Shown here: positions 1,154-4,482 of the stretch, piece after piece
How positions within the stretch are numbered: the first letter of the stretch is position 1
Layout: each line of letters begins with the position of its first letter
Assembly (NCBI GenBank): GCA_964501035.1
Contig: CAZCRK010000010.1
Coordinates: 1 to 39,069, forward strand
DNA length: 39,069 nucleotides
Direction: 5' to 3'
Translations under genes and position numbers: made by a program
The notes under the pieces: generated by a model
Database searches by the model: none
What the model saw: only the letters and a program-made list of their open reading frames with translations
Told to the model about the DNA's origin: nothing

Positions 1154-1795
1154 TTACTTTTTCAGTGGGCTCGTCACTTCTACAGATTTAAATGTTTGAC
1201 TAAAAGAGGATTGAAGCAATGCTGCAATCTCAAATTGAGTTCCAAGCCAATGTTTTCTATTTTCATTACTAATTACTACAGGTTGACGTTTTTTGATATT
1301 ATGTATTTTTTCCATAAATGTATTTGCTGGTTGCGTTAATATTGAAACTGTATTTAAACTAATGTCATTTGTTTCATTTATCCATTCGGACCAAATTGCT
1401 CCAAATGTCATAATTTCATCGTTAGGAAGTGTAATATAGTGGCACTGTTTTCCAGTTGATGTAGATTCCCATTCATAAAATCCATCTGCAATGACTAAAC
1501 ATCGTTTATCTTTGATTGAATATTTAAATGATGGTTTTTCATACACCGTTTCACTTTTAGCATTGTACGTCATTTTTCGAATTTGCTCTGCTTTTTCCGT
1601 ACTTGTAACCCAATGTGGAATTAATCCCCAATTATATTGTTTGATTAAACCTGCTTCTGATGAAGTAATGACGGGAATTTTTGGATTGGTAAATGCTGAG
1701 AGATGTGTTTTGGGTTCAAAGTACGTTTCAAATACACCACCAATTTCCTTTTCAATTTGTTGTTGTTTTCGTGCAATCGCAATATTAAAACACAT
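1154..1795 (-). CDS. SOS response-associated peptidase (SRAP/YedK/HMCES family, abasic-site protein)
   Basis: True start is probably ATG 1795 (MCFN..., giving the family's Cys2), overlapping the umuC stop as TAATG. Motifs WGLIPHW, YNAKSET, RCLVIADGFYEW, IHN..RQPV. Confidence 0.92.
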   Translation of the reverse strand: MCFNIAIARKQQQIEKEIGGVFETYFEPKTHLSAFTNPKIPVITSSEAGLIKQYNWGLIPHWVTSTEKAEQIRKMTYNAKSETVYEKPSFKYSIKDKRCLVIADGFYEWESTSTGKQCHYITLPNDEIMTFGAIWSEWINETNDISLNTVSILTQPANTFMEKIHNIKKRQPVVISNENRKHWLGTQFEIAALLQSSFSQTFKSVEVTSPLKK

Positions 1796-3054
1796 TATGA
1801 TTTCACCCGTAATAAGTCTGTCATTCGTGTGGTATAGCATGGCGAAAGTCTTTCTTGTCGCAACTTCCATTTTCTTGCAAATCCATTAACACATAACCGT
1901 ATTTTCATTCGACCATATTCTTCATTAATATTATCTATTGCTTTCATTAGATGGTGTCGTTTTTCCACATCTTCAATATTATCAAAAAAAGTTAGTTGCA
2001 CCTTTGATTGAGGAATAATATCTGACATAATCACCCCCGCTCGTTTATAAATACAATCATTTCGATAAATCCCCCGCAAACCTTCAATTGCTTTGGTAAC
2101 AATTTCAAGTGAATCATTGGTCGGGGTGCTAAAATGTATTTTCCTTACACCGCTGTAATTTACTCTATATTCTTGTTTAAATGGGTTAGTTAGAATAAAA
2201 ACTGTCATTGTTTTTGCACAGCTTTTTTGTTTCCGTAACTTTGAAGCACACATAGACGCATATGTACTTAATGCTTGCGCCAACTGTCGGATATTATCTA
2301 CCTCTTGTCCAAATGTACGAGAGGTACAAATAGATTTTTTGGATTGTGAATTTATTTCCAAATTAAAACACGGTATTGCACGCAACTCTTTAACCATTTT
2401 CAACCCAACAATAGACATATGGTGCTGTATCCACTTGTCTGACCGTATTGTGAGGTCATATGCGGTGCGTATTCCATAAAATGATAACTTTTTAGCATAC
2501 TGCCGTCCCACTCCCCATAATTTTGCTAAAGGAAACTCCTTTAAAGAGTCACTAATTTGATTCATATCATCAAGTATAAATACTCCAGATTTCGTGGTAT
2601 GCTTGGCAAGATGATTTGCAACTTTTGACAATGTTTTAGTGGGAGCTATACCAATAGAAATTGGAATACCTGTATATTGAGTTACTTTTTTTCGAAGGTT
2701 CATTCCAAATAAGTGTATATTATCAATACCATTGCAATCTAAAAATGCCTCATCAATAGAGTATATCTCAATTTGCGGAACTTCTTTCGATAATATCGAC
2801 ATAACTCGTTGAGATAAATCACCATATAATGCAAAATTCGTAGAAAATACAAATACACCATTTTTATCAAATATATGTTTATTTTTGAATGCAGGTGCTC
2901 CCATTTCTATTCCCAATGCTTTTGCTTCATTAGATCGTGCAATGACACAGCCATCATTATTGGATAATACTACCACAGGTTTTTCTCGAATTGAAGGATT
3001 GAACACGCGCTCACAAGATGCATAGAAATTATTACAATCAGCAAGGGCAATCAT
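1795..3054 (-). CDS. umuC: Y-family DNA polymerase V subunit UmuC
   Basis: [32 protein letters not shown]-terminal [13 protein letters not shown]; directly downstream of umuD. Confidence 0.95.
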
Positions 3055-3446
3055 CGATACTTACGAATAGAATATGGTACAACACCCCAAATTTCAAAGT
3101 CCATTTCTGCCGTTACTTTTATTGGGTGATATTGGGAATTGTATGGAATTAATACGGGTTCATTATGGGCATGAGATAATTGCTTTACCGTAAACTCTCC
3201 GCAAATTAATGCAACCACGATATCCCCATCTTTAGCTGTAAGCGATCTATCAACAATAAGAATATCACCATCGTGAATTCCAATTTGCACCATTGAGTCT
3301 CCATTAGCATATGCCATAAATGTAGCAGATGGATTTCTGATAAGATATTTATCCAAGCTTATTGACAGGTCTGTAAAATCCTCTGCTGGAGAGGGAAACC
3401 CTGCTGGAATAAATGATATTTCTAATTGTTTTTCTATGATTTGCAT
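3051..3446 (-). CDS. umuD: DNA polymerase V subunit UmuD (S24 autopeptidase)
   Basis: AGFPSPA cleavage motif, GDSM catalytic Ser, FTVK catalytic Lys, IWGVV. ATG 3446 preferred over the track start 3497; ATGA overlap with umuC. Confidence 0.93.
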
Positions 3447-3452
3447 TATAAA

Positions 3453-3502
3453 TACTCGTATGTTACTCGTATATTTTACCAACCTTGTTAAATACAATGC
3501 AA
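3453..3502 (-). promoter_or_regulatory. Putative umuDC promoter with adjacent direct-repeat operator
   Basis: Minus strand TTGCAT (3502-3497), 18 nt spacer, TGGTAAAAT extended -10 (TAAAAT 3478-3473). Immediately followed by ATACGAGTA twice (3472-3464, 3461-3453). Confidence 0.5.
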
Positions 3503-3582: not shown

Positions 3583-4482
3583 ATGTTCAAAATCATAATT
3601 TATATATTAAATATTACAACTATATTTGGAATATCCTTACAAGATGCCTATAATTCTGCAGAACCTGCAGATGGGTATGACAAGTATGTAATGCTTGATG
3701 CAAATATTGTATATACTGGCGGATTGGGGTTATTTGAAGGCAATATTAAAATCGATGGCAATGGTGCCGTTATTGATTTGCAATCAGGTGGTGGAATTTG
3801 GGTATATGGTGAAGCAGCATATCCTTGTCATGTTGATATTCAGGAATGTTCAGTAAAAAATAGTGATTATTTTGGTATTAGTTATGCGGGAACGTCAACA
3901 GGCTCTATTATAAATTGTAATCTTATTGAAAATGACTTTGGGGTTAAATTGTTTGACTCAACACATGTTGTAATCAAAAATTGCAATTTTATATCGAATA
4001 CAACCTATGGTTTAGGTATCTACAGTGAAATCCCAATTGCTGAAATTTCGTACTGCAATGCATGGAATAACGGTGATGCGGATTATATAGAAAACTGCCC
4101 CAACTGAGGTAGCATTTGGACTCCGTTGGAGCCCCAACCTGGTGATGGTCTCATTTTTGAAGATCCACTTTTTATTAATGAGCATTTTTCTAATTATAAT
4201 TATTTAGCAAATTCTCCCTGTATTGACACAGGTGATCCGCTCAAATTAGATGCTGATAGTACACGTAGTGATATTGGCGCATTATATTTTGTTCAAACCA
4301 ATTATCAAGTTGGAGATTGCAACAATGATAATGCACTCAATGTAATAGATGTTATAACTATTGTTAACGATTGTATTTTGTCTGAACCCGGTGCAAATTG
4401 CGACTGTAGCGATGTTAACTTTGATGGTAATATAAATGTGATTGATGTCATCACCTTGGTTTCTATTATTTTAGAAAATTAA
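3583..4482 (+). CDS. Secreted right-handed beta-helix + dockerin protein with in-frame TGA (candidate CxxU selenoprotein; alternative: nonsense pseudogene)
   Basis: Track ORFs 3577-4107 and 4126-4482 are in the same frame, separated only by TGA 4105-4107 and six sense codons (ENCPN*GSIWTPLEPQPG). Beta-helix-like repeats (IINCNLIENDFGV, IKNCNFISNTTYGL) continue into DPLF...SPCIDTGDP...RSDIGAL, then a dockerin duplication. Confidence 0.75.
4108..4140 (+). promoter_or_regulatory. Candidate bacterial SECIS element
   Basis: TTGG(4116-19)-A-CTCC(4121-24)-loop GTT-GGAG(4128-31)-CC-CCAA(4134-37). 17 nt lie between the TGA and the apical loop, whose first base is G; locally GC-rich in an AT-rich gene. 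Confidence 0.55.

Follow-up and report, generated by a model that had tools for sequence, protein, structure and literature searches.

The great majority of bacterial selenoproteins are thioredoxin-like oxidoreductases or subunits of metalloenzymes, usually discovered through homologues with cysteine in place of selenocysteine (Sec). The gene described here, at positions 3583-4482 of contig CAZCRK010000010.1 (NCBI GenBank assembly GCA_964501035.1; the 39,069 nucleotides analysed, positions 1 to 39,069 of the forward strand, are referred to as the window), belongs to a genome of Candidatus Neomarinimicrobiota (Marinimicrobia/SAR406). Comparison with related sequences indicates that it is very probably a single gene for an exported selenoprotein and represents a new family of marine Marinimicrobia, one that differs from those already known in being a pectate-lyase-like beta-helix protein, exported and putatively docked at the cell surface, and apparently Sec-only in its lineage.

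NosD, a periplasmic beta-helix protein of nitrous oxide (N2O) reductase maturation, resembles the predicted product in its right-handed beta-helix (Pfam PF05048, 24.9 bits against a cut-off of 23.6; PDB 7o0y_A, Z 13.5 over 156 residues), but polysaccharide lyases do as well or better in the fold search; no match to the family model of NosD, TIGR04247, was obtained at E<=1, and nosFY and nosZ were not found nearby. An outer-membrane beta-barrel transporter selenoprotein likewise has a C-x-x-U motif, a location outside the cytoplasm and a fold that is not that of a classical oxidoreductase; its sequence is unrelated, however, and its paper reports many Cys homologues. The TUGYCR family, NF053656, has a secreted, Dockerin_1-bearing member in the same genome with a GUU loop 20-22 nucleotides (nt) past its UGA, but differs in its thioredoxin fold and U-x-x-C motif and shows no sequence relation to the beta-helix module. 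Finally, the Omp28-related selenoprotein NF045500 (GOS_C) is also marine and exported, and its C-terminal region (profile positions 313-376) aligns with the dockerin tail of the protein described here. This match is confined to the tail (22.7 bits against a cut-off of 200) and does not extend over the full length, and the accessible descriptions of GOS_C give it UxxC in a thioredoxin-like fold (it stands in Table 1 of a 2026 review of the prokaryotic selenoproteome as 'Hypothetical protein GOS_C', UxxC), whereas the Sec considered here would lie in a beta-helix protein with C-x-x-U. A relative of NF045500 with the motif W-U-G-P-C is encoded in the same genome (contig C27).

The initial annotation of this locus stated that no Sec family combining a beta-helix with a dockerin was known. 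This stands to the extent that neither NCBIfam nor Pfam holds a model of such a family and that no account of one was found in the literature, the BSepDB family list lying outside this comparison. In their accessible portions, the 2026 review mentions none of helix, dockerin, PF13229, PF05048 and PF00404, a 2022 review and the BSepDB paper mention neither helix nor dockerin, the deep-Sep paper mentions neither of these nor NosD and has nine new families, none of this kind, and the GOS paper has seven new families, none of them a beta-helix. Sec together with a dockerin-like tail does have precedent, both in NF045500, which matches the tail, and in dockerin-bearing redoxin-type candidates of the same genome; the only NCBIfam matches of the protein are to dockerin-like tails, those of NF045500 and of a cellobiosidase.

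The gene consists of two open reading frames (ORFs), 3577/3583-4107 and 4126-4482, which lie in a common frame with only the TGA at 4105-4107 between them. Reading through gives 299 residues, with Sec (U175) in the segment ...YIENCPN-U-GSIWTPLEP..., and the sole start available to the downstream ORF, TTG 4126-4128, is the Leu codon of TPLEP and falls within the hairpin discussed below. These observations bear out the initial annotation, which had described one frame broken by a single TGA in the context C-P-N-[TGA]-G-S-I-W-T-P, a downstream piece with a TTG start only, and, beyond the TGA, a DPLF...SPCIDxGDP...DIGA motif (here residues 194-233) followed by a dockerin (Dockerin_1, residues 244-292). 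The features of the gene are as follows.

3583-4482, forward strand: complete putative selenoprotein gene, 299 codons and a TAA stop, with one in-frame TGA
3577, forward strand: alternative TTG start of the gene
3583-3636, forward strand: probable Sec-type signal peptide, MFKIIIYILNITTIFGIS, read from the sequence, with an approximate cleavage site
3748-4083, forward strand: right-handed parallel beta-helix core, residues 56-167 (Pfam PF13229 Beta_helix, 46.4 bits, cut-off 25.9)
4096-4098, forward strand: TGC codon of Cys172, the predicted partner of Sec in C-x-x-U (TGC or TGT in 44/44 loci counted)
4105-4107, forward strand: predicted Sec codon UGA (U175), a common column in the aligned loci
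4118-4133, forward strand: SECIS-like hairpin GG-A-CUCC-GUU-GGAG-CC, with bulged A 4120 and loop G4125 U4126 U4127
4162-4281, forward strand: C-terminal beta-helix cap DPLF...SPCIDTGDP...DIGA, residues 194-233, including the invariant Cys213
4312-4479, forward strand: type I dockerin (Pfam PF00404) with two Ca-loop repeats, DCNNDNALNVID and DVNFDGNINVID

Positions 4105-4107 are covered without differences by contigs from four public seawater runs of four studies (one possibly the source sample), the check by mapping that had been proposed for this site, and because these contigs agree there the TGA is not an assembly error. The window has 31-35% G+C (GC) and is densely coded under translation table 11. 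Only two differences of the gene were seen in other assemblies: A>G at 4089 in run X2, which changes Ile169 to Met, the residue of most homologues, and T>C at 4272 in run X4.

One argument for a sense reading of the UGA is its conservation. Searched in six frames, 61 related genomes yielded 44 matches that extend across the TGA column (from 43 genomes, at 44-80% identity), and each of these full-length homologues has exactly one internal TGA; when 30 of the loci were aligned, all 30 had it in one column, within the invariant motif ENCPG-U-G[NS]IWTP, and C172 is likewise invariant (alignment A3). A profile search (E<=1e-40) of 401 genomes sampled across the phylum recovered the family in 61, which belong to four families within the window's own order and to three from other orders of the same class. 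Every match in this sample that reaches the TGA column has one TGA, the two stop-free rows ending at contig ends ahead of it. The motif becomes NC[PFIVL]G-U-G in 14 loci of other orders and families, again with TGA, and a locus from another class of the phylum (L104) has QNCLT-U-GGG, also with TGA. Even in the paralogue L038, where Pro-Gly is deleted to leave ENC-U-G, the TGA is retained. Metagenomes were scanned with the Sec codon left open as TGN, and TGA occupies it in 120/120 of the loci listed (at least 120 in all), which comprise at least 101 distinct downstream 48-mers. No TGC, TGT or TGG was found at the Sec codon among the matches of the 401-genome sample or the at least 120 metagenome loci. 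The family thus appears to be Sec-only within its lineage, no Cys orthologue having been found, and as far as sampled it is restricted to part of one phylum. That phylum is widespread in the ocean, and the family is common in marine metagenomes.

The paralogue belongs to a subfamily (L038, on contig C70 of genome G010, and public records P0027, P0041, P0056, P0058 and P0059) with an inserted GCGG and the motif NENC-U-G, whose TGA was checked in DNA for L038; genome G010 carries both this C-U form and the main form.

Both sides of the TGA evolve as coding sequence. Across eight close pairs, the ratio of nonsynonymous to synonymous substitution (dN/dS) is 0.02-0.12 over the 150 codons upstream and 0.08-0.28 over the 65 codons that follow the TGA, and for the tail it is 0.06-0.37 in seven of the eight pairs, dS being saturated in the eighth. 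The residues around the site are conserved through different codons: Gly+1 is encoded by GGT (7), GGA (20), GGC (7) or GGG (11) and Cys-3 by TGC (26) or TGT (18), while the Trp+4 codon is TGG in 45/45 loci. The first in-frame ATG, GTG or TTG past the TGA lies at +7, the Leu of TPLEP or TPLVP, in 11 of the 45 loci and 13-190 codons downstream in the other 34, which lack a nearby start; the downstream part is therefore no independent gene. Together, the comparisons show that UGA 4105-4107 behaves as a conserved sense codon, with purifying selection on the coding sequence to either side.

Bacterial Sec insertion sequences (SECIS) are stem-loops shortly downstream of the UGA, whose apical loop lies at a short, fixed distance from it and contains a conserved G; in the Escherichia coli fdhF mini-SECIS, SelB recognises a loop G-U together with a bulged base, at a distance very similar to that seen here. 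The hairpin in this gene begins 13 nt past the U of the UGA and spans +13 to +28. Its 6-bp structure is paired in 98.9% of cells (30 sequences), and in a set of 45 sequences that covers all lineages, pairing of the inner 4 bp is 96%, compared with 59% for shuffles and 24-58% for slid controls. Compensatory changes occur in all four inner pairs (48 double-change cells), and none of 500 shuffles reaches the covariation score. The stems differ among orders (CUCC/GGAG, CACC/GGUG, CAGA/UCUG, AAGA/UCUU and UUCA/UGAA), in step with the encoded residues (WTPWEP, WTPLVP, WAECLP, WEEFLP and WVQFEP, respectively), and the loop GU is constant: G21 and U22 (the U of UGA being position 1) never vary, and among the metagenome loci listed a GUG or GUU loop is kept in 97/101 distinct variants. 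A hairpin with its apical loop 19-24 nt past the U of the UGA also occurs at five other candidate Sec sites in the genome, selD included; two of these sites have GUU at 20-22 nt and the other three have no loop G-U. An invariant loop G-U at a fixed distance amounts to a compact SECIS rule for this lineage, by which further genes of the kind might be located.

The host genome, 95.7% complete, has the machinery that Sec insertion requires. Profile matches identify selD (378.8 bits), which itself contains Sec (STGAG-U-ACK), and selB (375.2 bits) and selA (523.1 bits), which are neighbours on contig C6; a tRNA-Sec with anticodon tca lies on C2. Within the phylum, selA is present in 304/401 genomes, including every family that holds the beta-helix selenoprotein.

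The initial annotation had read the UGA as Sec, giving one exported protein of 299 residues, and had named tests by which this could fail. With the TGA in a common column in all homologues examined, dN/dS well under 1 on both sides of it, the hairpin, and selA, selB, selD and tRNA-Sec all present, we consider the identification as Sec very likely to be correct. The halves were never seen as independent genes elsewhere, and the recent nonsense mutation that the annotation had left open is ruled out by the conservation of the TGA and the selection downstream of it.

The protein would be built from a constant N-terminal module and an exchangeable C-terminal anchor. Its N-terminus has a single Lys followed by a hydrophobic run, predicted by AlphaFold2 as a lone helix (residues 2-14); homologues have a similar N-terminus and then a conserved SLQ..Y..A.P..GYDKY. 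The AlphaFold2 model (37 aligned sequences; mean predicted local distance difference test score, pLDDT, 88.1) has a beta-helix to about residue 172, then the cap motif, then a two-helix dockerin, and places C172-x-x-U175 on a less confident loop (residues 171-190, pLDDT 67-69). Invariant columns of the cap are P195, F197, S211, P212, C213, I214, G217, P219, D230, I231 and G232, and the same motif recurs in distant homologues. The Dockerin_1 match (residues 244-292) scores 24.3 bits against a cut-off of 22.9, and 26.5 for the C-terminal piece alone, with two D.N.D..N..D repeats visible in the sequence. The predicted protein has the C-x-x-U motif of thioredoxin-fold CxxU/UxxC oxidoreductases, but its fold is a beta-helix. 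In fold comparisons with VIA-align, the best matches were the PL6 alginate lyase 7dmk_A (Z 14.5, 191 residues aligned, root-mean-square deviation 4.0) and the pectate lyase 7xks_A (Z 14.4), the structures matching only as generic beta-helices; Foldseek against the PDB returned nothing below E 1e-3. At E<=1, no polysaccharide lyase or glycoside hydrolase family model in Pfam or NCBIfam (PL1, PL6, PL9, GH28) was matched, the resemblance being at the level of fold.

Across lineages the N-terminal module of about 240 residues is constant and the C-terminal anchor is swapped, a pattern, seen by comparing loci L065-L078 and L104, that fits a secreted, surface-anchored protein. The anchor is a dockerin in the window's order and a repeat domain of about 150 residues (GWNLISG...GYWLR, with no Pfam or NCBIfam match) in three other families; L077 has a tail that by eye is of the sorting type of the type IX secretion system (T9SS), and L104 a long extension followed by a dockerin.

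An exhaustive profile-free search uncovered more distant homologues that have no stop, small secreted beta-helix proteins among unnamed metagenomic proteins (P0149, P0163, P0170, P0172, P0178, P0187, P0224, P0268 and others) with 31-38% identity to the Sec family. An alignment of the two groups with hhalign has a probability of 100% and E 3.7e-47 over 219 columns. From N-terminus to cap they are alike, sharing the LQ..Y..A...GYDK start, the beta-helix and the SPCI.AG cap, but the stop-free proteins have neither Sec nor a dockerin, and those with a recognised tail domain carry T9SS sorting domains. In place of C-x-x-U they have C-[GDS]-C, and Cys213 (SPC) is conserved along with the Sec-site cysteine in both groups. 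Read across these alignments, the site is evidently a pair, either Cys/Cys or Cys/Sec, whose spacing varies (C-U, C-x-C or C-x-x-U).

Elsewhere in the genome, four matches to the cohesin domain PF00963 exceed the cut-off, two of them in a single 2192-residue frame, and the cap-plus-dockerin part of the query has matches in at least 37 regions, which suggests that this Neomarinimicrobiota genome encodes a cohesin-dockerin display system. There are also at least four further candidates for exported selenoproteins.

C9:623-1375 (reverse strand), C29:10273-10602 (forward strand) and C52:3232-3525 (forward strand): cohesin domains PF00963, above cut-off
C8:36669-37907, forward strand: TUGYCR redoxin candidate (L182), 413-residue read-through, NF053656 135 bits (cut-off 100)
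C73:364-2265, reverse strand: AhpC-TSA/Redoxin candidate with U-P-V-C (L185), 634-residue read-through
C27:1897-3447, forward strand: AhpC/ResA-like candidate with W-U-G-P-C (L184), with a dockerin-like segment and a T9SS sorting domain
C18:4468-5508, reverse strand: thioredoxin-like candidate with T-U-P-W-C (L183), with TPR repeats and a lipoprotein-like N-terminus

The TUGYCR candidate combines choice-of-anchor R and Dockerin_1 (residues 186-237) with Sec in KAG-U-STCR, and its hairpin loop GUU is at 20-22 nt past the UGA, the same position as in the beta-helix selenoprotein. The U-P-V-C candidate has LVIVD repeats, choice-of-anchor D and a C-terminal Dockerin_1 (residues 578-632), and the dockerin-like segment of the W-U-G-P-C candidate matches the tail of NF045500.

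These results suggest a scheme in which, by the usual bacterial mechanism, SelB carrying Sec-tRNA(Sec) would bind the mini-SECIS and insert Sec at position 175, and the signal peptide would direct export of a product of about 280 residues. The mature protein would comprise a short right-handed beta-helix, a flexible loop at its C-terminal end bearing Cys172-x-x-Sec175, the cap motif and the type I dockerin, by which it is predicted to dock on cohesin-bearing surface proteins. There, the Cys/Sec pair could act as a reversible selenenylsulfide redox centre or as a binding site for soft metals or chalcogens, perhaps together with the genome's other redoxin-type selenoprotein candidates that bear a dockerin or T9SS tag. 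Metal binding is kept level with redox chemistry because the C-U spacing of the paralogue resembles motifs given in Table 1 of the 2026 review for metal-binding and organometallic-lyase selenoproteins.

Several observations weigh against parts of this scheme. No RNA run is among the public runs listed for the gene, and the presence of selenium in the protein is a prediction from sequence. The 401 genomes and at least 120 metagenome loci yielded no homologue whose Cys aligns exactly with the Sec column; in the hhalign alignment the invariant second Cys of the C-x-C motif falls one residue before U175, and some homologues (P0182, L103) lack a Cys at the site altogether. With 4 + 2 bp in this gene the hairpin is short, and since it lies inside conserved coding sequence, its conservation is due in part to constraint on the protein. 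The selD loop of the host genome is AUC and not GU, and the Rfam SECIS models gave no match in a scan of 3900-4400 (E<=10), which returned only chance snoRNA and lncRNA rows. As to function, no conserved functional neighbour was found in 12 loci, with 34 flanking ORFs scanned, and the case for a redox or metal-binding role of the Cys/Sec site draws on the motif, on the kind of fold and on what else the genome encodes; we would put the chance of such a role at a little under even.

The main functional rival accepts the selenoprotein but sees in it a polysaccharide lyase, hydrolase or binder in which the Cys/Sec pair, or a bond between Sec and Cys213, is only a structural cross-link. Such a bridge in a glycan-active enzyme would suit the fold matches, led by pectate and alginate lyases together with glycoside hydrolases (Z 13-14.5), the classical association of dockerins with glycan-degrading enzymes, and the joint conservation of Cys213 and the Sec-site cysteine in the Sec family and the stop-free homologues. 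Yet a costly Sec has been strictly kept, without a swap to Cys in any of the genomes or metagenome loci, which points to a chemical need; the variable spacing of the pair is not what a fixed bridge would favour, the other dockerin- or T9SS-tagged Sec candidates of the genome are redoxins, and no lyase or hydrolase family model was matched. We regard a purely structural role as unlikely.

A second alternative concerns what is inserted at the UGA. The codon could be passed by SECIS-independent read-through or by a near-cognate or suppressor tRNA (for Trp, Cys or Gly), or it could serve mainly as a regulated stop; the main product would then be a 174-residue beta-helix with neither cap nor dockerin, and the hairpin would merely stimulate read-through. 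The small size of the hairpin and the silence of the Rfam models are compatible with this, as is the fact that the identity of the residue as Sec comes from sequence comparison, and gene callers do place W at the site: the full-length proteins in the databases have it in 52/52 cases (records P0003-P0061 were examined). Within single 90% identity clusters (those of P0054 and P0015), however, all W forms come from contigs of <=3.2 kb, whereas calls for the gene on long contigs (up to 117 kb) are truncations of 158-180 residues, one of which NCBI names "hypothetical protein [Candidatus Marinimicrobia bacterium]". The W forms are best explained as a gene-caller artefact, as table-4 calling on short low-GC contigs would give. 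Insertion of Trp would, moreover, predict some TGG, and all genome loci and the at least 120 metagenome loci have TGA; there is a Cys three residues before the site, or adjoining it in the paralogue, the loop G-U is at a fixed distance that is common to two of the five other candidate Sec sites, and the genome has the full Sec machinery. Read-through of this kind is, in our estimation, very improbable.

There is next to no probability that the locus is a pseudogene or a pair of adjacent genes that share a frame by chance. From this sequence alone TTG 4126 could start a second ORF, but the TGA column is kept across several orders and one further class, downstream dN/dS is well under 1, the G-x-I-W that follows the TGA is conserved with synonymous variation, 34/45 loci have no start codon within 12 codons, and the cap motif that normally follows beta-helix repeats sits after the TGA; the comparative data refute both forms of this explanation. 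A genome-wide sense reading of TGA (table 4 or table 25), for which the low GC of the genome (~32-35%) and the W in public gene calls might be cited, is of equally negligible probability and is excluded because TGA ends 229/1129 long ORFs in the genome and 7/26 in the window as an ordinary stop, the window being densely coded under table 11 and each homologue having one internal TGA.

If the gene does encode a Sec-only family, it would be missed by Cys-guided searches and by standard annotation, and in public annotation it is currently halved. The finding bears on the annotation of marine data, on estimates of microbial selenium demand and on extracellular selenium chemistry. More tentatively, marine Neomarinimicrobiota may bear an extracellular 'selenoproteome' on their surface, anchored by cohesin-dockerin pairs (and by T9SS) and consisting of peroxiredoxin- and thioredoxin-like Sec proteins together with the beta-helix C-x-x-U protein with its obligatory Sec; we consider this doubtful on present evidence. 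Were it true, these proteins could jointly carry out extracellular redox or chalcogen and metal chemistry, for example on polysulfides, organosulfur and organoselenium compounds or soft metals, and selenium would be a determinant of how an abundant ocean lineage processes its surroundings.

The genes around the selenoprotein gene vary between lineages. Where synteny is seen it involves housekeeping genes, in the order pyrF, an unknown 187-residue ORF, the selenoprotein gene and an amidohydrolase, and in other orders the neighbours are other T9SS proteins. The window has umuDC, a P-loop kinase and a K+ channel instead, with the umuD-like (Peptidase_S24, 148 residues) and umuC/dinB-like (IMS, 419 residues) pair directly upstream at 1795-3497 on the reverse strand. 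Since a same-genus relative has different neighbours, an ABC-F ATPase and an amidohydrolase, the locus has been rearranged in the window.

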